From positions 4,216,001 to 4,280,000 of the forward strand of contig JAYWIR010000014.1 in assembly GCA_036172245.1 (NCBI GenBank): a stretch of DNA of 64,000 bases, in the 5' to 3' direction. This document shows, one piece after another, positions 3,001 to 51,365 of this stretch; position 1 is the stretch's first letter; the number at the start of each line of letters is the position of its first letter. This stretch comes from Raillietiella orientalis. Taxonomy: Eukaryota. The notes under the pieces are model-generated. The model did no database searches. It saw nothing but the letters and a program-made list of their open reading frames with translations, and was not told the origin of the DNA. Position numbers and translations under genes: made by a program.

Positions 3001-3131
3001 CAGCTGCAGCTCTTCTCAGTGCCACGTGGTTCCAAACAGTGAGAGCACGTGGAAAGCTTCCCACTCACGCAGAAACTCTCTGCAGCTCCACACTGAAGCA
3101 GAAAAACTTTTGCTTTCAGAACATTCATGGC

Positions 3132-4219: not shown

Positions 4220-4454
4220 GATGTTGAAGAACTGTGATACGAAGCACTTCGACATAAACTGCGTGGATCCACTCGGCAGGTCTGCTTTGCTGATGGCTAT
4301 AGACAATGAAAACCTGGAAATGATCGAACTTCTCTTGGAATACAAGGTCGAAACCAAGGATGCTCTTCTTCATGCCATCAACGAACAATATGTTGAAGCG
4401 GTGGAAGTGCTTCTCGATCACGAGGAGTCGATCCACAAACCGGGAGAACCTCAC
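4220..4454 (+). CDS. Trpgamma: exon 2, ankyrin repeats ([23 protein letters not shown]...)
   Basis: ctcag|G acceptor completes an Arg codon; donor CAC|gtaagc. Confidence 0.97.
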
Positions 4455-14300: not shown

Positions 14301-16009
14301 AGTTGGCCACTCTGAAAGCTTAGAACGGATGGAAGGGAGTGAAAAACGAATGGAAAAAGACAGGACAGGGACTTTGGCTTTGGCCGGTCCTTCCTTCTAG
14401 AATCGGCGCTGGATGTCGGTGATCTCCACCTTGACTTCTTCTTCCAGACGGGGCCACCTAGCAGCCGTCCTCACGTTAACGGCAACCATGCGGGTAACCT
14501 CACTGCGTGGTCGTTTCGAGCACGTGCTGGGCGTGACGACGGCGCGGTTGCTGCCGATCGTTGCGATCACGGCTCCTGACGACAGGCCCCACCGCGCGCG
14601 AAGAATCCTCACAGCAAGTCCTTAGTCCCCACAGTCGCAGTCCCACCGCCCGAAGAGTCCGAAAGCAGACGTGGGATCGATTTGATCGACCCGCGTCTGG
14701 AACAGTCCAAGGATGCAGCTTCCCCAAAGGAGAGGCAGTGCAAGCGCTGATTGCACTGGAGACCCCCAGCACGGAAGCAGTAGCGCAGCGCTTCGGAAGT
14801 ACGTACGCAGCGTGCACCCGTGCACAAGGAAGTGTGTCTTGCACATCGTAGGGCCGCAATCTGTTTAGGATCTTCCTCTCCCCAATTCCCAAGCGATCTT
14901 TACTCATTCTTGCGCGACCGCCATCCGCCATTCCTCGATTTAAAAGAGATCTCGAGTCAGCCAGATTCATGTGCTCGGTGTGTGGTCACTGGATGGGGCG
15001 CTCCATGTAGGCACGCTGTAAAGAGACAGAGCTCGGAGTGCGATGATGAGAGAGGAGGAAAAGGAGCTTTCGCGTAAGGGCTCTCGGAAACATTCGACCT
15101 CCTTTGTTTCCTTTTCTTTCTTTTTTTTCTTTACATGCATAGTATTGGGACTCTTCTGAGGGAGGACCTCCCGCTGCCCTCGTATTCCCCTCTCATTTCT
15201 GGGAGGGGCAGAGCTGGGGACGAGAAGCTCCTTCCGGAACCGAGAGTGGGGTCAGGCCAGTGCGTCTGCGGCGGACGTGGAGGCACGCCTCCTGGCGGAC
15301 CACGATCTACTGCAGCAGGTCGATGACATCTGCTCCACCTTCATCCGGCTAACGTCCTGGTCGTTCTCCTTCAGGGTGACCTCACCGGTTCTCAGACTGG
15401 CGTCTCGGTTCTCCGGGTTGTTCGCGTGGACGGCCCTGGCAACCACGGTCCTCCTGGGCGTTTCGGAACTCAGGAAAGGGAGGTCGATGATGATGATGTC
15501 GGCGGAGGGAGGGTGCCGGAGAGAGTAACCTGGCGTCATGCCACTTGCGGAAGCCAGCGTGACGTTTGAGGCACCTATGGGGGGATTGTCCGCGGACACA
15601 GTGGCCAGGAGGAACCGCGGAGTCCCCACCTGGGGTGAGGAGGCGGGGTGCGGGGCGATGACAGAGGCGCTCCACGGCAAGCACGGGGATCGATATTCTG
15701 GCGACAGAACGGCCCTCGTCCGCGCCGAAGAAGTCACCCTGCAGGTGACGCTCGCGCATTCTAGGGAACGGCGTCCCAGAGGTGCCTCGGCCCTCCCGGA
15801 AGAGCAGCCGTACAAGGGCTCGCGCGCGCCGCCGGCGGGCAGGAAGTCGCACAGCCCCATGGCCGACCGTCCATCCGTCCACGCTCATGCACAGGACGGA
15901 GGGCGAGGGGTCTTTTCCAGGTGTGCCGCCACACGGTACCACTCGGCAGCGCCAACTCGGCGATGCGACGCTTTTTTTCCTTTGTCTCTCTCTCTCTCTC
16001 TCTTTTCAG

Positions 16010-16211
16010 GTGTGGATGCAGCGAGTGTGTGTCCTCGAGGATAGAGGATTGCCTGAGACACAGCAGATCTCGCATCAACGCGTATCGTGCTCTGGCGAGC
16101 CCATCCTTGATTGCCTTGTCCAGCAAAGATCCCATCCTCACCGCTTTCGAGCTGAGCCACGTCTTGCAGCGACTCAGCTTCCTGGAGCACGAGTTCAAGA
16201 CGGAATACCAG
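16010..16211 (+). CDS. Trpgamma: exon 4, TRP_2 Zn-binding region (CGCSEC...[20 protein letters not shown])
   Basis: (CT)n tract followed by ttttcag|G; CAG|gtgagg donor. Confidence 0.97.
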
Positions 16212-16266
16212 GTGAGGGAGGAGCGTCCGCGATGCGCGCAGTCGCTGCCACGCAGTCCCGTTGCAG

Positions 16267-16437
16267 GAACTGAGGAGGCAGTGCCAGAACTTCGCCACTG
16301 CCCTGCTCGACCACACGAGAACGTCCTACGAGCTGGAGGTCATCCTAAACCACAGCTCCAGAGGCCCGGAATACGAGTCCGGGAACCGCATGCACCTCAG
16401 CCGCCTGAAGCTGGCCATCAAGTACAAGCAGAAGAAG
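16267..16437 (+). CDS. Trpgamma: exon 5 ([18 protein letters not shown]...[12 protein letters not shown])
   Basis: Follows a 55-nt intron; ttgcag| acceptor; AAG|gtgtgt donor. Confidence 0.95.
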
Positions 16438-16879
16438 GTGTGTGGGAGGGCAGGGTGGGGCGGGGAAGTGTGGCGCTAGTGACTGTACTTGCCGGCGCAT
16501 CCGCAGCAGCGGCGAGAAAACGACAGCGAGGCGGAAGGTCGCCAAAGATTCCGTCGCGTGCGCCGACTAGCTATGGCCGAACCCGCGTGTTCCTCCACGC
16601 GTTTTCAAGTGCACCGCCGCAGCGAAGGACCCGACAAGAGCAAGCCGCTCCGTGGCCAGCTCGGGTCACTGTGGCCGCCCGCTTCCTGAGCCCTCATCTC
16701 GCCCTCTGGAAGTTCCCTCCCCGCATCTTCCCCTTCCTTGACCTCCGCGCCCAGCTATCAGCGATCAAGAGAGGAAACCGGAAGGAGTCGGAATTTCTGG
16801 CTTGACTAGCACGCGCCCGTGTCCGAGTGTGATGGGTCCTCCTTTTTTTCTTCTTCTCGGTTCTCAAGGAGTGCTGAAG

Positions 16880-17525
16880 AACCATTCGCCTCATGGCTCA
16901 TAAAGCTCTTCTTGACCGCTGTACACTTCACCCGAGGGTGCGTGCCAACTCTTCTTCAAGTTAGGAGTCACCCTTCAGGGACTACCCTATGAATCCAGGA
17001 AGGCTCCGGGGGAAGGAATCCATGTTTCTCTTACGCTTGCTAGGGCACCCCGCAGGGAAATTCCTCCTCATTCTCTCTGGAACGACCCCTCGGAAAGCAT
17101 CCACTCCTCTGAAGAGAACCCTGAAGTGACGTTTCCCAATTTCATTAAAGGGCTCTCCTCTTACACTCTGGAGAGGCGACGCTCCGATCGGGGTATCAAT
17201 CAGCTCACCGTGGAGCACAATGGAGGGTCTACCCCCAGCGGGGGGCGATGACTTCATTTTCACAATCGGAGGGAATATTTAAAGAGAACAGGCTCTTTGA
17301 TTCCCGGAGCAGTCCCGGCCAGTTAACAAGGGCACCCAGGGTTTACGGCTTCCACCAGTGTTGCACCCGAAGTCCGTGGGCCAACCAGCGTCATCTTGCG
17401 GGAGGGGGGGTTCGAAATCAACGGCATACACCCTATTCTCGCCGCCGATCTTTCCCCGGGTGGGATTCGAACGTGCAACGCCTGGCACCATGCGCGGAGA
17501 CCGCAGCCACACGGCGCCAACGCGG
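16880..17525 (-). mobile_element. tRNA-derived SINE-like repeat, copy 1
   Basis: Minus strand has an A-box-like TGGCGCCGTGTGG and B-box GTTCGAATCC (about 17462-17472). The body is homologous to the other three copies. Ends are approximate. Confidence 0.75.
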
Positions 17526-27900: not shown

Positions 27901-29374
27901 CTGCACGTCTGTAACTCCAACTAAGTGCGAAGAGAGCGAAGCCGCGAGGGAGCGACACACTTTTCCCCCAGATACGAAACAGCATCCCTGGGAGGTGGTT
28001 GCGTCGCATCCCCGTCCACTCCTCCACCTAGGAAGCGGGGGAAGCGGGAGGGGGGATGCCTTCCGTTTCCATGGATTATCCGCATCAGGAAGAAGCACCG
28101 CGAATTGCCTCAAAATTCAGTCCTATCGCGAAAGCAACCGGCCTGACCCGGGAGCAGATTGGTCCCGAGCACTCCAGGTGTCGGTGCGCTGCACATCCTT
28201 GCATCCTCGTGATGGCGATGCAGTGATGCCATTTGTTAGCCGTCGACACTTTAAAAAATCCCCCACAGAAACACCCCGTTACGTGCACCCATCGGACTGC
28301 TGATGCTGATTCCACCAGCATGCAAGAGACTTCCAGAGAAAGATTATGGTAGTGGTGTTGTTTTTTTTTTTTTATTCTGGTGTGCGCCTGCATTTGTGAG
28401 TCTTTCTGCTTCTACGTGAACTGTCGGCGTCTGTCTGCCTGTTTGTCTGCCTGTGTATGTCCGTGTGTACACGCACACGTGCTTGGAAGCGTAGATGTCC
28501 ATAACTTGTAGTTGTAAATTACAAGAAGAGGACAGTGGTGATCATGATCCACATTCACGAAATACGTCGGCACCATCAACGTAGTTCAAAAGAAACATCG
28601 TGGATGCGAGCAAGAGCAAGTGCAAGGATTTGTGGCGCTGAGAGAGTTGGTATCACTGGGCCAGCCCAGTGATACCAACTCTTTGCAAACATTCATCCCG
28701 GGAGTTGTGGAACTCCCGAATGGACCATCGAGAATTCAGTAGGGATGGATGGATGGATGGATTCCTTTTTAAAGTGTCCCCCACAAAACGAACTCTAAAA
28801 CTGAATCTTTCTGGAACAGAGCTCCTCAATTCGATGCCGCCGAACTCACAACTTCACTGCGAAAGATCTGGAGCGAATCGCTTCTATTCCTACCAGTGCA
28901 GCCAATCTAGCAGCCGCAAAACATTGGCGGCACGTTGCCACTGGCGACAGAGGAGACATGAAGATCCTTTGAGTGAAGGGAGATCAGGTTTCTTCGCAAG
29001 GTTCCAGCTTGAAAGTGTGCGAGGCAAACCTCGCCCCTTTCTTCGAATCCTTCGGGCATCCTGGATGTCTGCAGCAGTGCTGGGCAGAGTGCCTGTTGCA
29101 TCAGGGAGTGCTTGATCTGGCTGACAGATGCTGAAGACAAAAGCGCCTGTCGACCGGACACTTGTGAGTGGACACGGAAAAAGAGGCAATCGCTTCCCGG
29201 ATGGAGGCCGGTGCCGTCATTCGAACGCCTCGTGGATCGCCCTCGAAAACGCGGAGAAAAAACGGAGCTCATGAAATCCCCGTTTCGTTCTCACCTTGTG
29301 CTCTTTCTCATCCGTGATCCGTTGCCACGGCGAAGAAAGAACAGTGGACTAACCCGATTGCCTTTTCTTTCCAG

Positions 29375-29530
29375 TGCTGTTGATCCTTGCATCGCAGCGG
29401 ATAGAAGTAGCTGTAGTGGATTGGCTGGGATTCAATCAGAGTGTGCTTACTTGGGTACTCAAGAACAGCACATCGAAAAGAGGTAGCGCTCCTACCGTGG
29501 TGGAGTGGATGATCATCGCCTATGTGTGTG
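29375..29530 (+). CDS. Trpgamma: exon 7, S1-S2 (LLILASQRIE...KRGSAPTVVEWMIIAYVC)
   Basis: tttccag| acceptor; G|gtaagt donor. Confidence 0.96.
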
Positions 29531-30586
29531 GTAAGTGGGGCCCTGGTTCACCCATTCAGCGCGGCTCCGAACACGTCCTTCCACGTGATCAGTTTCGAAG
29601 CGAAATGATGACTTTCCTTTGAACCCTCTTCCTTCCATCCGTGTTTCTCTCCCAAATACTGGATTTTGATGGAACGAGTGGTTTAATAACCGAACACTCT
29701 TGAGGAGTGAGGAATCAGATGTTCACTGGAGCACGTCTCCTAGAATGGAGGACGGTCGCCTTTCTTTGCACATTCATCCTCGGATTTGGCATTGGAGAAG
29801 TTGCAGCGTCCTCTCTTTGTGGGGGGAGGGGCGTGTGAGCATTTCTTTGAATGTGTAACTGGCCTGGTTGGCTGCTTGCGTCGTACACTTTGTGTCGGCA
29901 TCTTCTCCCCATTGCTTCTGCCCACATCTTCTGCCATCTCGACGGGTAAACAAACATCCCTGTTTTCTTGAAGAGATCTAAATAATTGTCCGTTTCATCA
30001 TTGCTGTCGTTATCACCGCCTGCACTCTTAGGAATTTTTGAGGGTTCCTTTTTGCTCACTTGAAGCACGAATTTACTTCCGCAGCACGCGAACGCTTTTC
30101 ATCTGAGTGTTTTGCTCCTTTTTTTTTTCCTTTATGTTTTTGGCTTCAGATTGAGTTTCAGTGCTTGGAAGAATGGATGGGCACCTGAATTCTTCCCGTG
30201 TCCACAACACGCAGGAACTGGCGCTGAAAAGTTCCTTTCCTTTTGATTCCCAGCTGTTTCCTTTTGATCGTGGAGCGTGAGCTGCTCCCCGCGCCAACTT
30301 CTGGCGGCTGTTACACTGCTTGGATTGTTTCTGAACTGCTTCTTTGCCCTTAGAGCTGCTGAGAGGAGTCCAATCCCCTGGTTTCGTTAAAAATTTAAAA
30401 CTCTTTGCAAACATTCCTCGTCGGCTGTTTCTCTTGGAACCCATTGCGATTTGGCAGTCACGCCACACCCAGCAGACGCTTCCCCAGCTAACTCGAGAAA
30501 ACCAAGGGCTACGCGAGGAATTGCATCCAGGGCATTTCAAGCAGCGTGGACAAGCACACATGTATACACGGCTATACATGGATGTA

Positions 30587-30589
<3 letters not shown>

Positions 30590-30630
<41 letters not shown>
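30590..30630 (+). repeat. (GT)~20 microsatellite
   Basis: Uninterrupted GT run. Confidence 0.98.
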
Positions 30631-30633
<3 letters not shown>

Positions 30634-33600
30634 GATCAAATGGTCTTTTAAAACTGATGGACTGATTGAACGAGGACAAACAAGTAAAAAAAAAGTAACT
30701 GCAGCGCAACGACGAAAGCAGGCTAGAGACGGAGATTCTTCAGGGAGTATGCAAAGAATTAAATTTATTGCATCCGAGACATTAGGATGCAAGCTTCGTG
30801 GGAACGTATTAGGAATCAAACTGATGAGATGAGGATTTACATTGAGGCGCGAAACGGGTCGTCATAATGTTGCTGCATAAAATGCTTACAGAAATACCTT
30901 CCATTCTCCGAAAATATCAGAACATTACGAATAATCGAGAAACGGAGGCTGTAACTGCATTTCGCCATTTTGTCGATGAATGCCTCCTAGTTTAATAAGG
31001 GTCACCCTTTGATGGAGGGCGTTCGACAGCCATGATTCTCCAATATGTTCGAAGTGAGCTGGAATCCTCCTCTATCTGGAATCTCTAGAAGTGTAGATAT
31101 ATGCAAAAGATTCGTGTCATCTGTGTGAGAAGTAATAGGTGACTTGCCACTCATCATCAGAACATCTCTCCTCCAAAGCGTGAATCATGTACGGCTACTG
31201 CAAACTACGGGATGTAAATAAATGCCCCAGCACGTATTTGTCTGGACACGTTTACGCACACGTGTTTGCTTGTTATTGTGGACGAGCAGTGTACGACAGT
31301 ACAGTGCTCGTCCACAATGAAAAAGCACCACAGTTTGAAATCCTATTTGAGGTTGCTGGAGTTCATAATCGTGTTGGCATTTTTTTGTGAAGGAGAGCGT
31401 TAACTGCATGAAAAGTCGGTTCCAAATGCTGCGTAAATGAGATAAGAAATCCAGCATGAAAACGAAATCCAAAAGCATAAAAAAAAAAAAAAAAAAAGCG
31501 ACGACTTTTGCCGATCTGAACTTTCTCACGTTAGTTTTTGTCATCTGCCGTCTTACTGCTCATCCGGGTAGGTTCATCATTCCATCTTGAAAGACGCAGG
31601 AGACAACAGAAGATCCTTGAGCTGCTCGTTAATAGTTCTCATGACTACTATTGCAAGCATCGTCGGCGTTGCCATGACGCTCGCGTCGCTACTCAGCGTT
31701 ACACGTGGAGCCTTCTGATGAGGGATTATCGGGACCAGAGTTAAAATAAGTAACAACGGGCGCCAGCTGTATTCCTTGAGTGGCGCAGATTATTTTCTGT
31801 ACGGTCCCGCTAGAAATCCGGAATCATCTCTGCACACGCCATTGGTGTGACTTCCCATAGATTCAGAGAGCATAGCGAACGGGTAGAGCCTTCCATCGAA
31901 CTCGCCCACGTGCTGGCGAGAGCTTTCTGAAAGCAACAGACACAACTGGAGATTTACAAGAATCATGATGAAAGTGCTCCAGAGGTTTAAAGGAAGGTTT
32001 TTTCCGGATTCATCGCGGGAATCCTTGTTTGTCACGAGGAGAAATGAGACGTTAGCGCGGAACACCTTGCTCTGCGCGCGAAAGAGTTGCAGCGTTCGGA
32101 GTTTCTTCGCGAATGGAAGAGTTCCACCTCGTGAGCGCGCACGCCGACGTCGTCTACTGCCACCCACTGATGGTGGCTTCTCGAGGAAGCATCTTGCATC
32201 TGCATCCCATCCCCTTTGCATCCCTCCCCCGGATAGGTGAGACGGTGGGATTCGTCACGATCCATGGCAGGGTTTTGGCTGGCAACCCCGCCATTTTTTC
32301 CTTTGCTGACCTCATGAGGGTTCCTCACTGAATCGAAAGTTTGCTCTCACCGATCCGCATCAGCGCGAAGGGCTGGAGATATTTCCATCTGCTTCCAGGA
32401 TTTCTTTCGGGAATGACCCACGTGAGCTCGCACGCTTATGGAAAATAATGCGATGGCGACTTACGTTCAAGAACTGCTTACTGCTTACTGCACTAGTCTT
32501 CCAGAATGCTTAATTCCGCTTCAACCTCTGCCGAGCCCAGGCATTATCTCGCAATTTTTTTTTTTTTCTCTGGAAGTTTCTTGACTTCCGTTATGGCAGT
32601 TCCATCCTCCCCATTTTCAAAGCTGGGTAATTGATAACAACTGTGTAGAGAGCAAGCGACAAAAACGTAACTCCCACTCACAGAGTGGCTTCTCAGGCGA
32701 CGTCGATGACCTGTTTCCAGCCAAGAGAGGGTTTCGGGCAGTTGAACGTGTTTTCGTTGCCCTTCTTCAACACAAGGGCCGCCACCGCCGCGGAGTCTTT
32801 GAAAGTCACACCCTAAGGAACCAAGTTCACGCAAGTTCCCCGAATCGAGAGATTCCTAAAGTCTGGTGGCAAAACTGACCGATTTGTCTCGAGGCACTCG
32901 GCCGTACAGATGCCGGCCAACGCCTGTCGCCACTGTTCCGCAAAAGGTCACGCGAATCCATCGCAAGGCATGTCGTTCGCTTTTTCCTTTGCGCTACTCT
33001 CAGAGCGACCCGGGATGCCCGCAGTCATGTGTCAGCTTCCTCGCTCAACAAAACGAAGTGACCCTGCAACCTTCAAAGGTAGCCGCTTGATTCTGTGCAC
33101 TGCATCCAGAAACACGCCGCATTCTTGCCCATAAATCGATGGAAGCACAAGAGGTCCTTTTGTTTCCACCCACAGCTGAAAACGCACTCCCTTGCACACG
33201 CTCAGACCGAAGGAAGCCACGTCACGATGCTCCTTGGGCATAATCCTCAAGGAACACATGGAAATACGCGGGCCAGAGCACTTCCGCATCGGGTGGCTGG
33301 CAGTCCTCCTCCTGCGAAGATGCGAAGCGGATTGTGCGAAGATGGGGGCATAGCGTCCAGCGTCCTAAATACGAGAATCAACCGCTTCCCTTCAACTTTT
33401 TCCAGGAACAGGCGTAGTCGCTAACGTTCCAGCCTTCCCAACCTTCGGTGAGGCTCGGACAACTCGCTTTCCTGATCCTCCCTCGGCACCTTCGCGATGA
33501 AAGTCCTCCCGATTTTTGCATGGGCCGAATTTCGAAAAATTGATCTGTCCAGCCATTTTCTTTTCTTTTTTTCTTCCTTCCCTTCTTTTTTCCTCCTCCG

Positions 33601-35310
33601 TTCTTTCCCTTTCCTCCCTTCCTCCTCTCTTTCCTCCTCCTCACTTCCTTTCTTCTCCTCCCTTCTTTCCGCATTCGTGATCACATGGCACCCGTTACCC
33701 GTAGCAAGGCATCTTCTTCATTCGCATGTCGCGGTCACAGGAGCGGTGTCTCTTCCCAGAGAACCACACCCTGCACACATCCTGATATTCCCGCTGATCC
33801 GAGCCGAATTTCGACTTGACTCAGTTTGGACGCTGCCTCGTTGCTGGTCACTTTTTCCCCGCGGCTGACGTCAAGCGCCACGTTTCTTCCGCTCGCTTGC
33901 TGACGGTGTTCCTTTCCGGGAGACGCAAGTGATTCTTCAAATGACATCGGAAACTTCCTGAATATTCACGGGTGACTTTTCAAAATGTGGGGGACCTGAA
34001 CATTCCTGAACTCAACGAGTATGGGGCGGCAAAATGATGCAGGAAGAATGGGGTCAGTTCCGATGCACAGGAGGGGAGCGCTTTGGTCATGAGTGAGGTC
34101 ACCCCTCCAGTCTGAAGAAATTCCCGCTCAGAACTGCCCACTTCCCCTCTTCCTGCATCGAAATCTCCGGTTGCACGAAGCAGGTCGATGACCCACCAAG
34201 AGACTTGGAGGGGGACTGGAAGGGACATGATGGACATGACCCGGGGGACCGGCTCTTCTGCCCCCTTAGAGGATTGTTGAAGCGTGATGGAGGAGGAGGG
34301 GGAAACTCACATAAGCACGGGGATCAATGGAAAGCCAAGCCCCACGACAATACCTGAGGCGATCCTAAATGCTTACCCCTGCAACGCGATGCTTTCGAGA
34401 TCTGCATGTTCTCCACCATCGCCAAAGGCACCTCTTCCGCCCCTTGAAGAACCGAACCCGGAGGGGGAAGAGAAATAGCAGGGAGCTGCAAGGGGTCCCG
34501 TGTTCCGGGAGAGAAAGAGACTCATCCCAAGGTCCGGGGAGCACCGGAAATGGACGTGTCTCGACTCGCGATCTCAGAGCCTGCCAGAAAATCTCTCGAG
34601 TTCCGCTCCGACGGACATTCCGTGGGGTTTCGTTCCGAAGGCGTCCTGCCGGGCCCGTCGCTCGATTGCCTCGACTTTCCTCTGGAGTCATTCCATCTCC
34701 AGGACCGCCCCTTGGGAGGCAAGAAAGCCTCTTCGTGCGGATCACGTGGCCGCAGCCACGCAGCCTCCGTCGGAGGAGGCTCCTAGCATGCAGGCCGCCC
34801 GTTGTGATGCCGCCGCAATCCCCAGAGGATTCAGAAGGAGGAATCCTCTCTCTGAGCCACCAAACTCCCGGCCACTGTTTGTGTTTCCCAAGAAGTCAGA
34901 CGGGCACCTCGGCATCTCGGTTCCACGTGTCCGTGGCTCGTGTGAGGCTGGGTTGCACGGTGCGCCTCCCGGTTCTTCTTCCGGGAAGTATCTTCCTCCT
35001 TTGTTCCTCCGGCGCCAGTGAGACTCATGTGGCGCTGTCGCCCTGTGAAAATCCGAGCTGCGGAAATGCGACGCCCCCCGGCGCGTCAGGGGGCTCGAAC
35101 CCTTGGCATTCTCTTTTTCGAAGCGTGATCTGGAGGCTGTACGCTTGGCAGTCTCGGGGTCAGGGGGAGGGAGAGCCATCGCAGGTGCCGCGCATCTCTC
35201 ACTTCCAATCCTCCCGGGCGGGATGAGATTCTGATGCGCTGCGGCACTGAGGCAGCGCCGTCCTGCAGCCTCGCGACCGCGCCCCGGAAGGAAAATGGAG
35301 ATCACTGCGA

Positions 35311-35560
35311 AGGATGTCCACCTCTATCCTGCTCAAGATCTTAATCGGTCCCAGGTGTGGGTTCACGGAGAAGCTGTGGACCAGCTTCAGGGAGCTGTAA
35401 GAGGGGGAGAAAGGGCTGAGAAGGAGGGGGAGAGGGGAAGGGGGTGAACATCTTGTTGCGTCTCCGCGACGACGGCCAAGAAGGCTGCTTTTTTCCTCTC
35501 GCCTACCCGTGGGAGACGGGAAGAAGGAGGAAGAAGGGGAGGAGGAGGGTGAAGAGGGTG
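35311..35560 (-). pseudogene. Antisense duplicate of the intron 9 3' end plus the 5' part of exon 10
   Basis: Minus-strand translation reads [29 protein letters not shown]. The reverse complement of 35346-35406 matches 39032-39092 at 57/61 nt. Confidence 0.93.
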
Positions 35561-35769
35561 ACGAACCGCTTGCACCTCTCTGCAGGAAGCTCGACGGAAC
35601 CTGAAGCACCCGCTCGGATCGTCAGATCTGGATGCATTGCAGTACCTTTCTGAACCCGAGCCGTGGGGGCACACCGGTCTGCTTCTTGCTGCCAGAGGTC
35701 CACTTCCTCGGATGCATCGCCGTTCGTCCATTGCCTGGCTCCTGACGACGTCACCAGCACTGCTGTGCC

Positions 35770-36520
35770 GCAACGCGTGATGCCACATGTGTGGCACCAA
35801 GCGTTGCAGGTTCAAATTCCCACCTGGAGTATCGGTGCTTAGAACGGGTGAAGTGCGTCGTGACTTCCGTAGTCTTCCCCTCCTCGGAATGACGGCGTTT
35901 GTCCTGTAGACTTTGGGAGCAGCGCTGGTAGAAGAGGGAAATCGGAAGTCCTCGTTAACTAGCCGGGACAACTCCGGGGTGCTTCCAGGAATCAAGAAGC
36001 CCTTCAGGGTTTCCCTCCTGTTGCGAAAATGGAGCCTTCTTTTACACCGGGGGTGGACCTTCCGTGGAGCTGGTTGACACCTCAATAGGGAAGTCGCCTC
36101 TCCAGAGTGTGAAAAGAGCGCCCTTTAGAGAAATTGTGAAGCATCCTTTTGGGATTCTCTTCAGAGGAGTGGAAGCTTTCCGGAGGGTCTCTCCAGAGAA
36201 AAAATTCCAGAAGGCAATCCTCTTCGGGTTGTCTCCAGAGAAGAAATGATGGAGTATACCCCCTCGGGGGGTCACTCCCGAGAGAACAAGGAAGAGAGGT
36301 TCCCTTCGGTATTCCCTTCAGAGACAACCAGGGCGGAGGATTCTCTCCCAATAGCAAGAGAGGTTCAGACTTCTTCCTCAGGAGCCTTTCTGGATTCATA
36401 GGGTGGTCCCTCTGTGGAGTCCTCTTCAACTCGAAGAGTCGACACGCACTCCCAGGTAGAGTGGACAGCGTCAAATAGTTTCGTGAGCCCCTCCAAGGAG
36501 GCGAGCAGTTCCTCAGCACT
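35770..36520 (+). mobile_element. tRNA-derived SINE-like repeat, copy 2
   Basis: B-box-like GGTTCAAATTCC at 35809-35820. The body matches copy 1 in reverse (cf. translations SPLQSV, LFRGVxAFR and RSLxGFIG). Confidence 0.75.
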
Positions 36521-37415
36521 CCTTGGGAACCAAAAAAAGCTGGAAGGAAATCAAGGAAAGCAGAAGAACCCAAAATGATTTGCAGGAAGAGAACGGGGGA
36601 AACGACGGTTCTTTTCTTCTCCTTTTTGACGGTGGGATGTGGCCACACTCATCATGAAGTCCTCTGTTCCATGCGACAGGGGGAGGAAATGCGAAGCCGC
36701 CCGTCCGGCATCCCTGGTCACCCCTTGATGGAGGTGCTGAATGGCGGTGGTGGCAGTGGTGCGGCATTGCTCAGAACCTCGGATGCTTCCATCCTTCTCA
36801 CGGCAGCTGAGCCCTCGCCGTTGGTCTTCGGGCGAACGCGACTGCTGTCGACTTTGGCTCCTCAGGCCAGGAAAGCTGCGTCCACCGCGGCCTTTCCTAG
36901 CCTTTCCTCATTGGCGCCACCTCGCCACTGCAGTGCAGGAAGGTTTCGAACTTGCTGTCGAAGCTCGGCGAGCGAATGCTCCCCTTCCCCTTCCCGGAAG
37001 CGGAACCTAGGATCTTTGTGAAGGAACTGCTAGCTCTTCAAATATCTGGATCTTTCAGGCGCTCCGAATCCCGGGAGGCACGCCGTGGGTTCTCTGAGGC
37101 TTCTAGGAAGAGGGGAGAGGGTGCTCCCTTGAGCACGAGCAAGCGTCCTGGGAGCGTCGGAGCTGAGTGGAGGGGTCCAGGACTATCCCAGTGAGGCACT
37201 CCCACGAGGAAGATCTAGGGGGCGTCTCTGCGAGCAGCAGGAGGATCAGTCTGTCTCTCGCGTCCCCCAGAGCCATGGTTTTCGAAGTGTCCCGGTGCCA
37301 AACCAACCGATCCACCTGGCAACTTGATCCACTCCTCGCGCTCGCTTCGACTCGCGGAGCAGCTAACCTGCACCACCGAGAAGGGACTCACCTCCTCCTC
37401 TTCCCCCCTTTTCAG

Positions 37416-37555
37416 GTCTGATTTGGAACGAAATCAAGCAGATGTGGGACATGGGGCTGGTGGAGTATTCGAGGGATATGTGGAACATCATCGACTTCAT
37501 CACGAATTCCTTGTATGTCTCTACGGCCGCCCTGCGGCTCGTCTCCTTCTACCAG
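37416..37555 (+). CDS. Trpgamma: exon 8, S2-S3 (LIWNEIKQMWDMGL...MWNIIDFITNSLY)
   Basis: ttttcag| acceptor; CAG|gtgagg donor. Confidence 0.97.
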
Positions 37556-38658
37556 GTGAGGCCGCACGGGCTCTCCATCAGTTACGTGAGCAGTGCGCGC
37601 GCGCGCGCTCCCCTGGTCCGGTTCGAACCGACCATCCTCCGTCACCCCTTCTGGGTCAAGGAGTAGAGCTCCAAGCGAGGACGGGGGGAGGCGTCGCTGG
37701 CAGGGGAGGAGAGGGTAAAAAAAGAGGAGCCCGGGAGGAGTTTTGTCTCCTCCTGGGATCTCAGCAGGCTCAGGGAGTGCATCGATAAGAGTGGAGCGCC
37801 CGATGTCGTCGTCTTGGCTTCCTGGAAGGAGGAAGGTCTTTCGGCCGAAGAGGTGCTCGTCGGACTCCGGGATTCTCAGGCGAGAACCTTTCGTGCCGGG
37901 ATCTACTGTGCGACTTGGAAGTCCGAAGACTCCAGCCAAAGGGAACCCTATCGCGGTCTTGGCAACCGGTCGCCAGGGAAAACTCGTCCTTCCCCATTCC
38001 TCCTCTTCGCTTCCCGTACACCTCTAGGGATCATGGAGTCTTCTCCCTTTCCCCTGAGTTCTTTCTGTCTTCCCCCTGAATTATGATGGAAGGACAACCT
38101 ACGTCCCGTGGGATAATCCTTGCTTAGCCTGCGAGGGCGCAGACACAGGCGGGCGGTCTCAGAAGGAGTTCTGCCGCCCCTTCATGGAAGGTGAGTCCAC
38201 GTGCAACGCGCTCGGCACCGTTCCTGAGAGGATAGGGAGTAGGTGGGGAAGGGGCGAGGAGAGAGCAGCAGCAGGACGCTGCGCGCCTCCCCAGAGTCTG
38301 GGCCGGAACTCATCACCTTCAACCACTCTTTTGGCGCCCTCCGATGAGGCACCGTGCAAGCAGCAGGACGACCTCCCGTGGCTTGGCGAGCGAAATGGGA
38401 AGTAGGCAGGTGGAGTCCCTGGCGCGCGCGCGTCCTCGTGGAGACTCCGCGGCGACCGGGACCGTGAATCGGCTCTCTCCGATCCGACTAGGGGTGTCCC
38501 GGCTCCGGCAAGAGGGAGCTCTTGTGTCTTGATCCGTTGGCTCCCTCTTTTCTCCCTCTGAAACAACAAGTCATTATCCAGGAGCGCGCCGTTCAGCAGG
38601 GGCAGGAGGGGAGTCGCTCTTTTCTCGTCTCTATCACGCTCCCTCCCGCCCTTTCCAG

Positions 38659-38774
38659 GTGAAGAAGGAATTAAGGCTCGGGTCGGGAACCGCGCACCTC
38701 CCCAGGGAGCTCTGGGACGCCTGGGACCCTACGCTGATCGCCGAGGGCCTCTTCGCCACCGCCAACATCTTCAG
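38659..38774 (+). CDS. Trpgamma: exon 9, S3-S4 ([26 protein letters not shown])
   Basis: tttccag| acceptor; AG|gtgagt donor. Confidence 0.97.
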
Positions 38775-39043
38775 GTGAGTCGCGCTTCTCCTGCTCCCCA
38801 GCGACGACTCCTCTGAGGAAGAGAAGCCTTCCGCTGCCCGCTGATTTCCTCCTCCTCCTCCTCTTCTACTCTCCTCCTCTTCTTTTCCCTTTCTCCTCTT
38901 TCCTCCTTCTACTCCTCCTCTCCTCTCTTCCTCCTCCTTCCCGTCTCCCATATGAAAATCCTGTTGGACGTTGTCGCAAAAGGTGCAGCAAGATGTCCCC
39001 CCTTCCTCCTCTCTCCCTCTCAGGCCTTTTTCCCCTCTTGCAG

Positions 39044-39313
39044 CTCCCTGAAGCTGGTCCACATCTTTTCCGTGAACCCTCACCTGGGACCGCTGCAGAT
39101 CTCCCTCAGCAGGATGGCTGTGGATATCCTTAAGTTCTTCTTCCTGGACATCCTCGTGCTGTTCGCGTTCAGCTGTGGCCTCAACCAGCTCCTGTGGTAC
39201 TACGCGGACCTGGAGAACAAGAGCTGCGTCCACCAGAGGGCGGAAACGCCCTCGGACAACGACGCCCTGCCCAAGGACCCGGACGCCTGCTTCGTCTGGA
39301 GGAGATTCGCCAA
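39044..39313 (+). CDS. Trpgamma: exon 10, S4-S5 linker, S5 and turret ([24 protein letters not shown]...GLNQLLWYY)
   Basis: cttgcag|C acceptor; AA|gtgagt donor. Confidence 0.97.
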
Positions 39314-42003
39314 GTGAGTGGGCGCGGAGAGGGCGAGGAGGGTGGCAGAGGAAAGGAAGGGAGGTAGTGGGGACCAGGGAGACGCGCGCGTGCGAGAGGG
39401 ACCGCGGTTCCGGAAACCCCCACTCGTGTCTGCCATCCCCTCCCACACAGGTTCCACGCGGCTCCCCCTGTTGTGGAGACAGCCGCAAGGAACGAGCGGC
39501 TCCTCTCAATCTGGCCCGGGGCCAGCACGGGCGGAAGAATAAGGGAATACCTCATCCCTCCTTAGTTGCTTCCCTTCGTGCCCGCTTCCGGAAGACTCTG
39601 ACTCCTCCTGCACCCGAACCCCAGGGTTCCTTCCCTAGCCCTGTTTCCCAGGAGCGACTTCCTCCCCTTCACCTTTGCCGCTCTCCTCGTGCGCTCCTAC
39701 TCTCAGACGGGGTTGGACGGGGAAGCGGAGACGTCCGTACGCACCTCCTCCGCCGTCCTCGAGGGTGGAAGGGCCGGCCCAGGAAATTTTCCTGGATCGA
39801 AAGGCAGCTGAGCCGGGAGAAAAAACCCACGCAGGGGAGACCACGGGAAGCTGATTGAGGTCTCGTGGCCGCGCGCTCCCGGTGGCTGCAGGAAGATGCG
39901 GGGGCGAAGGGAGGAAGCGGTAGCGGAGCAGCTGGAAGCAGACTGGAGAACCCTCCCAAGAAGCAAGAATTCAGGGGAGGACCAGGTGAGATGGAGGGGG
40001 AAGAATCTTCGCCGCGCCTCAGACGGTGCGAAGAGTCGTCTTCCCGGGAGGCGCGAGCGCGCGCCCGGGAGCGTGGGATCGGACGGGCGAGGAGGGAGCA
40101 AGCCTTGCATTCAGGAGGGCGCGTGGGGGATGCCCGCTTGACCCCATAGAGACATCCTCTTCCAAGTGGGATTCGGGAAAAGGAGGAATATTTTCCCTAC
40201 GCGCATCCATCTCTCTGCCACCAGAAAGTTTCTCCACCGTCTTGGGCTCCTGAGCGAGCCTACGGCTCTGCAGGCGCCGCCTTCCTCTTGCCAGGCGAGC
40301 AGCGTGCCGTAGAGGACCCCTTCCCCTCCTCCTCCCGAGTTTCCTCACAGCTGTGCAAGAAGCCACCGCTCTGAGGGCGGAGGCTCCGCTTTCGACGGTA
40401 TTTCCCGGAAGTCCCTCCAGAGTCAGGACCAGCCAACGTGCCCGAAGAGGAATCGGCGGACGCCTCCCTCCTTCGACTCCACTTCGGCGCCCTCCTCTCC
40501 CGCTCGTCACGAAAAGATCCTCTGGCAGTTCCCATCTGTGGCGGTTCCTCGGGGTGGCGAGAGGAAACCGCCTTTCTCCCGCTCTGGACCTGTGATCTGC
40601 GGGCGTCTTGGGATCGCCCCGAGGGATGCCTTCCGGCGCTTTCGCTCCGCTCTCTCTGCTGCCCCGTCGGCGCCTCGGGGTCTTCTCGCAGCCGAGGGAA
40701 CCGGCAGAAGCGTGGCTCACTGGCGAAGCGGAAGAGGCACGTGAGGCTGCGTGTCCGAACCGTTCGCGGGAGATCGGCTGGGCGGGCGCAAGGGCGAAGG
40801 CCTCCCAGAGCTCCTCTCGCGCTGGATGCCGGACGACACCGCCACTCCTGAGGAGCCGGCGGGCGCGGCCTATTCCTGGAAGCCTCCTCGTCCGGCCCAA
40901 GGCAAGGACTGGAGCGCGTCCTCGCCTTGTCTACCACTTGCGCCTGAGGGGATGGATACGTGCGCCTTCGGGAGGGAAGGTGGCACGGTCCCGAAAGCCC
41001 ACGCACAGCGGCTAGCGAGGGAGAGGGGTGGAGTTGAGTTTTGGCAGCGGGATGGCGCCAAATTCGCAGGTCCGACAACGCTCCTGGCAGGTAGGTGGGG
41101 TCTGCCTTGAGGGTGCGAAGGCTGCCACTGCGCTGTCAAGTCGGTGGAGCGCCGCCGGTTGCGTGGCTCCAGGAGTGTCCCGCTGAATCTCGAATTTCCC
41201 GGGGCGGGATGAGAACGACCCGGTATTCCGAAACCCGGAGTCAGCCTCGGAGGTGCTCCCCGGCCCGGAGGGGATGGATGGGATGGGGAAAGAGGAGGAG
41301 GAGGAGGAGGAAAAGGAAAGGACAAGGCCTTTCTTGCTTGTCTAGTGGAACGGAGGAGTCGTTCCGCACCGGGTCAACCAGCTAGGCGTCCCGGAGCATC
41401 CTCTCGCGACTGCCTGAGATGCTTCGCATGTCTCGAAAACGACCGCTTCGCAGAGTCGCTCACAGGAAACGGGAGAATTTCCCTCACCTTTCCTTCCCCC
41501 CTTTCACACACATACAAAAGTGTGCAACAGCGACGGGAGCAACGCCCTGCACCGAGTTGATGGATGCACCGCTCGAGAGAGCTCACCGCTCTGGAGAGCT
41601 GCGGGCCGCGCATCAGGCCTCGGCGGGTGTACCATATGCAAAACGGGCGGAGGACGCGAATCGGTTCACCCATTTCCGTGCCGAATCAAGTGGGAGGCCC
41701 TGAGACGCGTACAGAGTGGCCGCAGCACCTGCGTGCGAAGCAGCGGGCAGGTCCTGCGGGCGCAGGTTGGCGCTCTTCCTAAGGATCGCTTAACGGGGTA
41801 TTCTTACGGAGTGCTGCATCAGCTTCCCGACTCACGTCATTCTCATCAACCAACAGCTATGCGGGTCTCGATGGTCGAGGCTATTGCAATTATTTTTTAG
41901 AACTTTTTAGAGCATTCTCCAAGGTGGAGCGAAGCGTCCTCTCCCCTCCAGTGACAGTTATCCCTGTGCAGAATCCAGAAGCGTTTCCCTGCATAAATCA
42001 ATC

Positions 42004-42067
42004 ACAATGCATTATTGGAACGTAGTGTTTTGTGTTTGTATGAATTACAATGCATTATTGGAACGTA
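42004..42067 (+). repeat. Exact 21-nt direct repeat pair
   Basis: acaatgcattattggaacgta at 42004-42024 and 42047-42067. Confidence 0.9.
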
Positions 42068-42419
42068 TGAATCCTTCCAAGCCGATACACTAACAGATAG
42101 AATGTGTATGTCTGTATTGGCAGCCCGTGAGTTACAAGATACTTCAAAGACATTTGTTATCATGATGTTCCTTTTGGAAGAATCACCTGCGAAAAATGGA
42201 AATATGCGAGACGGATAGCAATCGTAAATCTGGAATCAATCATGTATACAAATACGTCTATGCATTCTTATTTGTTTGGAAATGCTTTCCCATATAGCAA
42301 GATATACACATACATATTGCTCGATAAAGATAGATGGATAAGTGCGTGCATAATTTTTCGATTACAGTGTGTTCTTATTGTGTGATGTTTATGTTAAAGG
42401 GATGGTACCACCGTGTTCA

Positions 42420-45400
42420 GTCAAAGAGCTTGCCGTTCGAAAAATGATCAATACGAATTCCAAATACGTGCTACACGTGAAACTTCAGTCTGCTTTAGCG
42501 CACCTAAGATTGGGAACTTCAAGTTCCCTTCTATGAGAGAAAACTCCCACTTCCCGAACCTGTTCTTCTCTTGTTTTCGTCCAGTCAGCCTTGATCGGGA
42601 TCGGGTCGATGGCGTAGGGGCCCCATTCTGCAAAACTGGACACCCCTCCATCCAAACGGTGAGACAGTCTCTTTGCCGCAACGGGGGCCGCAAGCTCCCC
42701 GATGCTGTTCTCAAAAGCTTCTGCAAAGTATGCCATCTCCATCAAACTTCCCGTCCAGGCTTGTTCCCTGGAAGGGTCCCGTCCACCCTCCAGCCACCCC
42801 GGTTCTTTACTTGATGCCACCCCCTCTTGCATGCTCCTCTGCACCAGCTTGCTGGACCGTGCAAAATGCAACGTTTCTTGCTAGACCACCCGTCCCACTC
42901 CGCGTGGGAGACACGACTTTCTCCATCCGGTAGGGAGGACTCTGGATGGATTTTCTGCTCGTCTGGATCCGTGCAAGATCGTAGAAACCCTTGCACAGTG
43001 ATCTTTAGAGGTGCTCATCCAACACAGAGCGTTGGAACCCCGCCCAGTGAGTCTTCCCCCTTGGCCATTGGCCGCATAAGTCACATTGCCTTGCACAAAT
43101 GACGGCACCCTCGTCACGTCTCCAAGGGCGCCTCGGCGCGGACCTGCTACAGCACCAACGAGCGGCGTTGGCGGAGAGGCCCTGAGACGTGAACACGTCT
43201 TTGACGTCACCGGGGCGCATGACCCGACCGAGGGGAAGTCAGAAGCGCTCACGGAGAGCCCGCACCTCGGCACGGTTCCTCACGGGGCTTCTGCTTGCTG
43301 GGAGGGAGGTCGCCGAGATTGCAGAAAACAAGAAAGCAATTGATTCCCGGAACCACCGAGATATTCTTGGATGGCGCCGGATTTTCCTCGTGGCTGGGGC
43401 TCGACGGAGCTTCGGCCCCACGCGCTCTCCCCTGGAAAGGAAGGCACATCGATTCCCCCCACCCACCCACCAGCGCCAGGAGCAGCCACGGGAGAGAGAC
43501 CCCTCCTCCGGAAGCGCGGCTCCGGCGTGCGCGCGGAGACTTCCGACCTTTGATGGGCGCAGCTCGCGAGGGAACGCCGCTCCGGATCGGAACGACCTCC
43601 GGCAATCCTCGCAGGAAGCCTGCGAGCTTCCTGGCAGCGACCGATCTTTCTGTAGCTTCCCCTCCAGCTTCCCGCGTCTCCAGAGAGACGTCCTGGGTTC
43701 TCTCTGAGAGGAGTTTTTTTTTTTTTTTTCCCGATCTCCGCGGAACAAATTTGATCTCTGCAAGAGCAGCGCTGAGAAGAGGCGGCCTCCTGCCGGCATG
43801 AGCGTTCAGTCCGCACCCCAGCTCATCGCCTCCCTCAGATCCGCCACCGCCCGAGAGTAGATCGATCCACTCGCAGCCATGGGTGTGGCTTGGTGCCCCT
43901 GGCAGCTCCCCCAGCTGGCGCAAAGGGCACATCACTGACCGCCGGAGGCTGAGAACGAGCCGCTCTCAGACAGCGGCAGTCCCTGCTCGACACGTCCCCT
44001 TCCCGAGATGACGAAGACTGCGACCGAGCGGCTGACACCTACCTGACTGCCGGCTCCGGCCACGATCTTCGGGGATCCGGAGGACGCGTCACCTGGGAGA
44101 TCCCCAGGGTTCGTAGAGCGCGCCGAGGAGGTAGTGACAGCAGGTGCCGAGCGGTTCTCCGTATCCGCGCGCCGCTTCGCCCGTTTCGCCCACGCGCACC
44201 GAACCTTCCGCCAGAGCTCCGAGCGGCTTGCTGGCGGCCGGGGTTCCCCCCTCAGACCGGTCCTTTCTCCCCTTTCCCCGCCCTCTTCCACCCGATCGGC
44301 GGAACCCGCAGCAGATTTCCGTCAGGGACACTCCCGGACGGCTCCTCCGTGGAAAAACGGACGTCTCCCTTGCTTCGCACCCCAGCGCGAGAGCAACTCT
44401 CCTTCATCTGGTGTTGCCGTCTTGGAAACGGCGTGCATCGAAGATTCTCGCTTGGAGCGAAGAACTGCGGAGAACTGGGCAAGCTGGAGGAGGAAATGAC
44501 TCTCAGGAGGGATCGATCACCCTGAGGGACAGGAGAGACCAGCTGGCAAACGCTCTCAGAAATCGACCAGTGAGGACCTCTGCTCTTCATCTCTATCGAG
44601 CTGCCAAAACGGCCACACCGAGCGGGAGGAAGAAGCGGTTGCGAAACCCGCTCAGTAGAGCGTAGCTACTGACTCGATGTGTTGATGCTTTCGCCTTTTC
44701 CCGAAGTGTTTCCGTAACTCCTTCCCACGGAAGTTTCCGCTTCTCCACAGCAACCGATATCGTTGCATAGCAACCTGTATTGTCAGTATCAGCAGCCCCT
44801 CTTCCATGCGCCTTACATGCGTCTTCGACTGGCTGCCCGCAACTCCCCTGCCTGAGTAAGGGCGCGCTCCCCAAAGCGAGGTTCCCGAGCGGACGAAGGC
44901 TATGAGAGGCATCTGTTGCGTGTCTCCAGCTGCAGCTTCTCCGCATCCCAGCATCTCACTGATCTCAGCACAGCCTTGCTCGTGGAGTGCTGGTCCCCCG
45001 ACACCACCCTTGAGCTGCAGAGCCAAGAAAAGACGCTTAGCCTCCCATTTGAAGGGTTTGGAAGCGTCTTTCTCGCGCTCAGATCTCCTCCAGGAATCGT
45101 CGATGCCATTTCTCTTTTTCCTTTGGTGTTTTATCTCCTTCACAGCCCGGATGCACTTTCAGCTAGTGTTTGGCGGCACAGATCCACCTGGAAGCTGAGC
45201 AGTTTCCGGAACTTGTTCAGAATTCCAGGCAACAGAGATGCATCTTCCATCCTCGAGCCGACACCTCAACAAGGAAAAGCCCTCGGCTCTTCCCTTCGAC
45301 CTCTGGTCTTCTTCGACCCGCATCGGCTTTCAGTGCGTTCCAACTCCGTAATCCCTGCAGCAGACCTCGACTGAGCCGTCTTCCCTCCCTCTTCACCCCC

Positions 45401-46800
45401 CGACTGGGAATTTACGGAGTGGATGCAAATGAGATCATTATGGGCTGCTTGTGACGTCATCGATCACATGCCGAGTTTACCGCCTGCTTTCTCCTTTCGC
45501 AGGAGTTGGCCGGAAGGAAAAACTCGACGTTCTTTCCTACGCCTCCGCCACGAAGGACAGGTCGGTTTCTGTCCCCAAGAAGGTATTGTCGGACCATCTT
45601 GTCGGACTGCCCTCTTTAACTCGCCCTTGCAACGAGGCTGCGGCTGCTGAAGACCCCTGCGTTGCGAAGGGTTGCTGTCGATGTGCGTTCCGCGGGATGC
45701 TGGACCGTTCCCTTTCCTATGCTCCCCGCCCGCTTCTCTAAAATCTCCAGCTCCCTTCAGACTTCGTCGGACGCTGCATCCCAAGGTCGCAGAGACCCTG
45801 CGGCGGCTGCTCCTGAGGTCACTGTGGGAACCCCTTCGGGGGTGAAGGAGAGAGCAGGTAGTCCTTTTCCGCCGCGCTGCCTGCCCTCCTTTCCTGCCTC
45901 TTCTGGCACCGTCGCCAAATATCTGCCGCGAGCGTTTTGCCTTCCTCTTTGCTGGAGCTCCACATCCAGAGTCCACCCGCTCCTGGGACAGGCTGGCTAC
46001 AGACCACCGGTGTCTGGCTCAGCTGACTACCCTTTTCCGTCGTCAGCGCCTGGTCGATTTCTTGGCGCATCCGTTGAGGTTTGAGACCGAGCGATTGGCC
46101 GTCACGCTCCACGCCCTCCACACTTGAGATGGCCGCCGCCGCCTGTGGTGGGCAATCTACGACACGAATCGCGCCGAATATATGCATCCGCAATCACCGC
46201 GGGTCGGAGATGCCCTCCGTTGAGCGAAAACTGCCCCGAGATCCAGGCCGCGCAACGCAGGACGTGGTCGTCCTTCAATGCGCGCGCGTCTGACAAGAGG
46301 GGACGGACGTCCACGTCGCCTGGTGCGCAGGCTGGAGGCGATCTCCTTTGTGAGCGCGTCCACACGTTGGGTGGCTAGGTCGCTTGGGGCACTTACGTCT
46401 CGAACATCGGCATCGTCTAAAGCTGGACGGCCGGTGAAAGAGAGAAACTGCGGCGCGTGGCTCATGGCGACTGCAATCTTCCAGCTTGTTCGAGACCATG
46501 CAGACCCTGTTCTGGGCAGCCTTTGGTCTGATCGACTTGCAGAGCTTCGAGCTGGCTGGCATCAAGAGTTTCACAAGGTTCTGGGGTCTGCTGATGTTCG
46601 GGACGTACTCCGTCATCAACATCGTGGTGCTGCTCAATCTTCTCATCGCCATGATGAACCACTCCTACCAGCTGATCTCGGTACGCAAAGATAAACCCCA
46701 CCCCTCTTTGCTGTTCCTCCACGATGACATAGGAACGCGCTGACACAGAATGGAAATTTGCGCGCTCCAGACTGTGGATCAGTTACTTCAAAGAAGGAGC
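42420..46800. repeat. Degenerate inverted duplication, axis ~44650, reaching exons 11-12
   Basis: Anchors 44466-44489/44924-44945, 43477-43487/45805-45815 (exact 11-mer), about 43360/45920. Confidence 0.7.
46485..46680 (+). CDS. Trpgamma: exon 11, pore helix and S6 (LFETMQTLFWAAFGL...VVLLNLLIAMMNHSYQLIS)
   Basis: LFW pore motif; ttccag|C acceptor; TCG|gtacgc donor. Confidence 0.98.
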
Positions 46801-46927
46801 CACGGTCCCTCCACCTTTCAACATCATCCCCTCTTTTAAATCTATGTATTACATCGTATGCATGATTTTGGAGCGCATCTGCCTGAAGAAGATACGCAGC
46901 GACAAGAAGAACTTCAAGTCGATGAAG
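46733..46927 (+). CDS. Trpgamma: exon 12, TRP box (ERADTEWKFARSRLWISYF...PPPFNIIP)
   Basis: Follows a 52-nt intron; catag| acceptor; AAG|gtgcgt donor. Confidence 0.96.
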
Positions 46928-47022
46928 GTGCGTGCTGAAATGATTCTGCCGGTGGCTATAGACATTTCGCGCTTGATCGTTCTGCGTCACCGCTGCCTTC
47001 TTCATTCTGTGGTTTCTTCCAG

Positions 47023-50759: not shown

Positions 50760-51365
50760 CCTGGGCACTGTCCACAATATCCGAGAGTGCATGTCAACTC
50801 TTCAAGTAAGGGGGTTCCCCAGGAGGGGACCACCCTAGGAATCCAGGAAGACATCCGGAGCAAGGAGTCCTTTCCTCCCACGCTAGGGAGGGAACCTTGA
50901 AAGGGAACTCCTTCCTCATTCTCTCAAGAGGGAGCCTGCAGAAGAACCGCTCCTTGTTTGCTCCTCCGAAGAGAATCCCGAAGGGATGCTTCCGAATTTT
51001 CTCTGAAGGGAGCAGCGCGCTTTCTTCGCATTCTGGGGAGGTGTCAGTCCACCAGCTCCGTGATACGAGATGGATAGGGTCCCCTTTCTGAGGAAGGGTG
51101 GGACGGTTTCGTTTTCACAACTAGAGGGAAGTCCGAAGGGGATCGACTCCCTGATTCCTGGAAGGACTCTTGTTAGTCAACGGGAGCATCGGGTTTCTAC
51201 CAGTGCTGCACCCGGAGCTTATCGTCCAGCTATCGTTATCCTGCCAGGGAATACGCGACGCGTCCATTTCTCGGAGTCGATCCTCCTGCATCCCTGGTAA
51301 TTCGAACCCGCAACACTTGACTCCTAGCGCGGCGACTGTCGCCACACGATCTCCAACGCGGGTCA
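50760..51365 (-). mobile_element. SINE-like repeat, copy 4
   Basis: Shares gaatccaggaag, gaagagaa and ttttcacaa blocks with copy 1; B-box GGGTTCGAA on the minus strand at 51301-51309. Confidence 0.72.

Follow-up and report, generated by a model that had tools for sequence, protein, structure and literature searches.

Does an intronic sequence that is complementary to a downstream coding exon act on the pre-mRNA in which both lie, or is it what remains of an old duplication? This question is raised by a stretch of 64,000 nucleotides (nt) from Raillietiella orientalis (contig JAYWIR010000014.1, positions 4,216,001 to 4,280,000 of the forward strand), which we call the window and whose own numbering is used throughout. 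On its plus strand the window carries what is, by homology, a TRPgamma channel gene, and an intron of this gene contains an inverted copy of the junction between a later intron and exon 10, the exon that encodes the S4-S5 linker. A reading of the DNA made without database searches (the sequence-only reading) had proposed the copy as an editing-complementary or splice-masking element. We estimate, with a probability of about 55%, that it is instead a lineage-specific, neutrally decaying inverted partial duplicate whose potential to form double-stranded RNA (dsRNA) is incidental.

An inverted copy of an intron/exon junction

A repeat search returned two inverted arms at 35336-35411 and 39027-39102 (76 nt, 88% complementary, 3615 nt apart) and a second, collinear inverted block at 35510-35534 and 38926-38950 (25 nt, 96%). 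MAFFT and local alignment showed that both blocks are parts of one inverted duplication, in which 35310-35547 corresponds to 38912-39131. The downstream, parental arm (38912-39131, plus strand) consists of the last 132 nt of the intron at 38775-39043, with its polypyrimidine tract and AG, and of the first 88 nt of exon 10; the similarity stops at 39131, so that one breakpoint lies within the exon. The upstream arm (35310-35547), read on the minus strand, is a degenerate copy of the same junction, in which a polypyrimidine tract and an AG are followed by about 29 pseudo-codons, and it was also recovered by blastn and tblastn, the latter giving a single antisense match, 35399-35307, to TRPgamma residues 545-576.

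The local alignment of the arms comprises 214 columns (185 complementary, 11 G-U, 5 A-C and 13 transversions) plus 10 gaps, and the pair scored E of about 1e-39 in blastn. When the whole window was compared with itself, only 8 repeat pairs were found, and the arm pair was the strongest of them by E-value (3.45e-38). Its pairing score was 22 standard deviations above that of 40 shuffles of the exon start and was reached by none of them (0/40). An assembly artefact, for example a fold-back chimera, would also give an inverted arrangement, and nothing except that arrangement speaks for one. Artefactual palindromes are near-identical, whereas these arms differ by 29 substitutions and 10 gaps, and the window contains no N; we consider an artefact extremely improbable.

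The best-paired part of the duplication is a 61-nt core in which 39032-39092 matches 35406-35346 with 57/61 Watson-Crick pairs, the remaining four being two G-U and two transversions. This core covers the AG acceptor at 39042-39043 and the 16 codons at 39045-39092. One of these codons, 39087-39089, specifies residue 15 of the exon 10 peptide, which aligns with the gating glycine G503 of TRPC4; mutation of this glycine to serine in TRPC4/5 forces the channel open, according to the accessible text of PMC5951680.

The identity of the host gene was established with the peptide of the S4-S5 exon, which matched 904 of 950 candidate proteins at E<=1e-3. Among the 120 matches listed, most of those with a name were TRP-gamma, at up to 78% identity, and the others were unnamed or hypothetical. 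The same peptide matched the solved TRP-gamma structure PDB 9vqq (E=1e-33) as well as TRPC4/5, at residues 489-557 in TRPC4. Using two full-length orthologues as tblastn queries, we obtained 14 sense-strand exon segments between 3060 and 54737, all on the plus strand. These matches indicate that the gene is a plus-strand TRPgamma (TRPC) orthologue, an arthropod ion channel.

Exon and intron limits were set from the tblastn segments and from the reading of splice sites, and the labels 8, 9 and 10 are nominal, having been taken over from the sequence-only reading. The upstream arm lies in a 7.9-kb intron (29531-37415) that follows an exon ending at 29530. Next come exon 8 (37416-37555, 140 nt), exon 9 (38659-38774, 116 nt), the intron before exon 10 (38775-39043, 269 nt) and exon 10 itself (39044-39313, 270 nt), which by its protein and structure matches encodes the end of S4, the S4-S5 linker and S5; the following exon starts at 46485. 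All of these are on the plus strand. The sequence-only reading had arrived at the same count of 57/61, the same coverage of the 3' splice site and 16 codons, an S4-S5 linker in exon 10 and a loop containing exons 8 and 9, and on each of these points our analysis agrees with it.

Exon 10 also differs from its relatives at three codons. At 39060-39062 it encodes H in place of Y (present in 117/120 orthologues), at 39099-39101 I in place of V (118/120) and at 39117-39119 A in place of V (119/120). By this comparison they are lineage-specific substitutions in S4 and the S4-S5 linker. The H and I are common to the exon and its copy, and thus these substitutions predate the duplication.

Decay of the copy and tests for its maintenance

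Translated on its minus strand, the copy departs from the real exon at I7 (S in the copy), L17 (I), Q18 (K) and M24 (I), and it has lost one codon at S20/L21. The positions changed in the copy are invariant in 120/120 orthologues, and the real exon holds the consensus at each. The copy is therefore without coding constraint and, being antisense, cannot be spliced into the mRNA. Homology to both the parental exon and its intron, a breakpoint inside the exon and the loss of constraint are together what defines a decaying inverted partial duplicate, and all three were observed. An identity of 86% combined with 10 gaps shows further that the duplication is not recent.

The sequence-only reading had held that the duplex is kept by selection or by recent gene conversion, and had described the core as far better conserved than the rest of the arm. 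Numerically the core did stand out (93% vs 86% of aligned columns; 57/61 vs 128/153 for the other aligned columns), but the difference was not significant. We counted each gap as one mismatch column, giving 224 columns in total, and shuffled the mismatch positions 20,000 times. A 61-column window with at least 57 matches appeared in 2024/20,000 shuffles (p about 0.10), so that the core shows no excess of conservation, and the longest perfect run, 23, was reached in 6834/20,000. Nor was the exon-derived part better kept than the intron-derived part (74/86 vs 111/138, Fisher p=0.37). An editing-complementary sequence (ECS) would be expected to have diverged less where it pairs than in its flanks; neither the core nor the exon part showed this.

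The bias of G-U over A-C differences, 11:5, was not significant either (two-sided p=0.21). Within 38960-39130, for which roughly 9 G-U and 3 A-C had been reported, we counted 9 and 4; the G-U figure stands and the A-C figure is one higher. The G-U excess is equivalent to an excess of C-to-T and A-to-G changes on the sense strand of a transcribed gene, and transcription-associated mutation bias could yield it without selection on pairing. We also noted that 9/10 gaps fall in the intron-derived part, that helix continuity is poor outside the core, and that the differences in the exon part lie partly in adjacent groups (39093-39096, 39103-39107 and 39118-39119). Each group may be the product of one event, in which case the core stands out from its 3' flank less than the counts suggest.

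A recent conversion tract would keep a core of 61-76 nt like its parent while the rest of the copy decays, and the contrast between 57/61 and 128/153 is of the kind that it would leave. However, about 10% of shuffles yield such a window by chance, the core still contains 4 differences, and its longest perfect run is just 23 nt. We regard conversion as quite improbable.

The copy was also looked for in TRPgamma genes of other genomes. Using the exon peptide, we collected nine TRPgamma-like loci (L001-L009) from metagenome contigs; they are distant, compact genes with 63-84% identity in the best segment and a GC content of 0.29-0.57. In four of them (L001, L002, L004 and L006), 2.7-5.4 kb of upstream sequence was included and the homologous upstream exons were covered. 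An antisense exon match or an inverted repeat touching the exon was found in 0/9 of these distant loci. A complementarity scan, performed as local alignment with a pairing matrix, detected pairing to the exon start above the level of shuffles in 0/9 loci; the best value, upstream in L005, was z=1.8 (3/40 shuffles as good), vs z=22 in the window. Against these nine distant loci, the inverted copy seems to be lineage-specific and not a feature of the family. Taken together, the permutation result, the two non-significant contrasts (p=0.37 and p=0.21), the 10 gaps, the lost invariant residues and the 0/9 loci leave no detectable sign of maintenance by selection or conversion, and this part of the sequence-only reading could not be upheld.

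One of the comparison loci differs in architecture. In L001 (GC 0.57) the tblastn segments of a TRPgamma-like gene at 1896-4755 are almost contiguous, pointing to a nearly intron-less gene, whereas the gene in the window spans more than 50 kb.

The predicted duplex and its possible effects

Cofolding of the two arms with ViennaRNA gave -354.6 kcal/mol, vs -99.8 and -47.4 kcal/mol for the single arms (-147.2 summed). The 76-nt core, whose upstream half in the sense pre-mRNA is 35336-35411 (plus strand), gave -139.1 kcal/mol, vs -49.8 +/- 3.6 for 100 shuffles. In the minimum free energy (MFE) structure of 35250-39200 (3951 nt, -1789.4 kcal/mol) there were 193 inter-arm pairs, 69 of them in the core, and together they took in almost the whole of 39044-39131 as well as the polypyrimidine tract and the AG. 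The same arms folded as an antisense transcript gave -324.8 kcal/mol, which leaves the sense duplex with an advantage of about 30 kcal/mol. The models thus predict that the copy pairs with the exon in the sense pre-mRNA, as an ECS would. In the MFE structure each of the 15 adenosines within 39044-39131 sits in an A-U pair, and editing would change the encoded amino acid for 14/15 (K>E/R, H>R, I>V, N>D/S, Q>R, S>G, R>G, M>V and D>G), mostly where the residue is invariant. The order of transcription bears on whether the arms meet: the upstream arm is transcribed at least 3.3 kb before its partner, and its host intron becomes spliceable once 37415 has been transcribed, 1.5 kb before the downstream arm starts.

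We propose the following course of events. About 220-240 bp across the intron/exon junction of the S4-S5 exon was duplicated in inverted orientation, seemingly in this lineage only, into the intron 3.4 kb upstream, and the copy has since decayed like non-coding DNA. Present in one pre-mRNA, the arms may form an imperfect duplex of about 190 bp that closes a 3.4-kb loop with two exons and buries the start of the S4-S5 exon (88 nt) together with the branch region, the polypyrimidine tract and the AG before it. Such pairing would be an incidental by-product, probably tolerated since the upstream intron is usually the first to be spliced out. ADARs deaminate duplexes of this kind, about 190 bp long, non-selectively, and non-selective deamination would damage the channel rather than tune it, given that 14/15 exon adenosines recode, mostly at invariant residues. 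At most, we would expect low-level promiscuous adenosine-to-inosine (A-to-I) editing of both arms, some delay in intron removal, or a minor circular RNA. We infer that the arms are not a tuned editing or splicing device.

Several points weigh against a purely neutral relic. The selection tests had low power, since they could draw on just 39 differences and had no outgroup. In the models the duplex dominates thermodynamically, and some molecular effect in vivo is therefore plausible. Both the greater stability of the sense duplex and the surplus of G-U over A-C lean the way one would expect of a sense RNA whose pairing mattered. Finally, the best-paired part coincides exactly with the acceptor and with the linker codons that are most conserved, among them that of the glycine aligned with TRPC4 G503.

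If the copy were a functional ECS, the duplex would recruit ADAR to the S4-S5 exon and recode the channel, for example from I to V at 39099, where V is present in 118/120 orthologues. Consistent with this, the predicted sense duplex is long and stable and holds all 15 exon adenosines as A-U pairs, G-U exceeds A-C by 11:5, and the exon encodes a gating linker. The biochemistry of ADAR argues in the other direction, because such a duplex is expected to give non-selective editing of invariant residues, and A39099 is preceded by a 5' G, a disfavoured neighbour. The copy also reads ATC at the 39099 codon, so the I predates the duplication. Moreover, the selection statistics were not significant and the nine distant loci contain no counterpart.

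A comparison with described ECSs leads in the same direction. Like the ECSs of insect ion channels and of the vertebrate GluA2 Q/R site, the R. orientalis copy is an intronic element complementary to a channel exon in the same pre-mRNA, with predicted dsRNA over potentially recodable adenosines, and recoding of insect ion-channel mRNAs through intronic ECSs is established (PMC4573499, PMC5319793, in their accessible parts). According to the same parts of these papers, the Drosophila stems are mostly 25-40 bp with small bulges and lie mostly within 100 bp of the edited site, and the search for distal ECSs looked for highly conserved blocks in introns up to 2.5 kb away. Those elements are short, near and conserved. 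In contrast, the predicted duplex here is about 190 bp, about five times the typical stem; its arms lie 3.4-3.6 kb apart, beyond the 2.5-kb range given for distal ECSs (PMC4573499, accessible text), with two exons in the loop; and it is an evident duplicate of its own target and has no counterpart in nine distant loci. By analogy, this size and distance would count in favour of a neutral relic. Trpgamma had 0 occurrences in 8 supplementary files of PMC5319793, a set of files that is possibly incomplete, and a literature search on TRPgamma and A-to-I editing found nothing beyond a sleep review. We therefore regard a functional ECS as rather unlikely. Of the original proposal, the stable predicted duplex over the acceptor and the S4/S4-S5 codons remains, and the support from selection does not. 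A separate idea, in which S-to-G recoding at the serine of the 'ISLS' motif would restore a conserved glycine, was rejected: S is present in 118/120 TRPgamma orthologues, and TRPC4 G503 aligns with residue 15, not 22.

The arms might alternatively serve splicing, either by masking the acceptor, which would lead to regulated retention or skipping, or by bringing splice sites together so that exons 8 and 9 form a 256-nt circle. The geometry is suitable for this. Complementary repeats are present in both flanking introns, the upstream arm in 29531-37415 before the looped exons and 132 nt of the downstream arm in 38775-39043 just after them, and the predicted duplex covers the polypyrimidine tract and AG. 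As in ZKSCAN1 and Laccase2, complementary repeats flank internal exons, and their length is well over the 30-40 nt that sufficed for circularisation in plasmid assays (PMC4201285, accessible text; see also PMC4617980); the difference is that here the downstream arm crosses the next acceptor into coding sequence. The same text states that circularisation is not predicted by thermodynamics alone. The combined length of exons 8 and 9 (256 nt) is no multiple of 3, so skipping them shifts the frame, and skipping the 270-nt exon 10 deletes S4-S5 and S5; linear skipping products would therefore be non-functional. The element is also not conserved in the nine distant loci. A splicing device is, in our estimate, unlikely.

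Long-range intronic pairing that loops out exons is known from the docking/selector-type competing RNA pairings of arthropod alternative splicing, as in Dscam1 and 14-3-3zeta. Those pairings, however, are short and conserved and belong to clusters of alternative exons; none of these traits was seen here.

Unspliced transcripts could also be diced to endogenous small interfering RNAs that silence TRPgamma. Drosophila hairpin RNA (hpRNA) loci are thought to be born by inverted duplication of a coding fragment, and the hairpin here is about 190 bp; but splicing separates the arms, and the 3.4-kb loop has exons inside it. This possibility appears very improbable. Plant MIRNA genes that were born when fragments of their target genes were duplicated in inverted orientation share this kind of origin (bioRxiv 10.1101/682591, accessible part). 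Both hpRNA loci and plant MIRNA genes differ in being separate transcription units with short loops, whereas the copy described here lies within an intron of its own parent gene.

The duplication could also be the birth of an element: a long-range ADAR substrate over the S4-S5 linker would have come into being at a single stroke. Mutation may now be paring the promiscuous long duplex down to a selective one. We think such a newborn editing or splicing element decidedly unlikely. If it were real, it would exemplify one route by which intronic ECSs arise, whose origin is poorly documented; our literature search found no paper on the birth of an ECS by inverted duplication of its target exon. Were arm-dependent editing or circularisation to occur, the locus would be a natural example of how an ECS originates, in a part of a TRP channel that is critical for gating, and otherwise it would be an ordinary structural relic.

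Other features of the locus

Searches for other genes or RNAs around the arms were negative. Six flanking open reading frames (ORFs) on both strands contained 0 Pfam families, giving no sign of a nested gene. The 140-residue antisense ORF over the copy had 0 hits among 1061 candidates at E<=0.01 in a protein search, and Rfam had 0 matches at the gathering threshold in 29000-47000. As the observed/expected CpG ratio was 0.7-1.1 across the window, we rejected the idea that an internal promoter or CpG island lies near the arm. We also rejected the idea that the copy is left over from a mutually exclusive exon: it is inverted, and of the 270 nt it includes no more than the first 88.

Reading the sequence at 35397-35403 (plus strand), we noticed a donor-like GTAAGAG, which is the reverse complement of the copied acceptor. 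Situated inside a long intron, it could be a putative decoy or cryptic 5' splice site. There is a practical warning in this locus as well, in that a parental exon, an intronic inverted copy and a real acceptor can confuse gene prediction and read mapping.

A TE-like (transposable element-like) interspersed repeat has three copies in different introns of this gene (35797-36531, 16859-17485 and 50768-51041) with 68-77% identity. The copy beside the upstream arm is inverted with respect to the other two, so further long-range pairing between introns is possible. Capture of the exon copy by a transposon was rejected, since the neighbouring repeat begins 250 nt away and its other copies are without the segment.

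Two tblastn segments, 16008-16235 and 16264-16437, are just 28 nt apart. They are probably one exon (16008-16437) with a small insertion and not two, which bears on exon numbering.

Simple repeats are also present, namely a (GT)21 microsatellite and TCC-rich low-complexity tracts at 30590-30631, 38845-38947 and 33567-33668. The tract in the intron before exon 10 makes the inner breakpoint of the duplication ambiguous. Lastly, we found two short intronic palindromes, at 28643-28682 (40 nt, 95%) and at 31267-31327 (62 nt, 84%).

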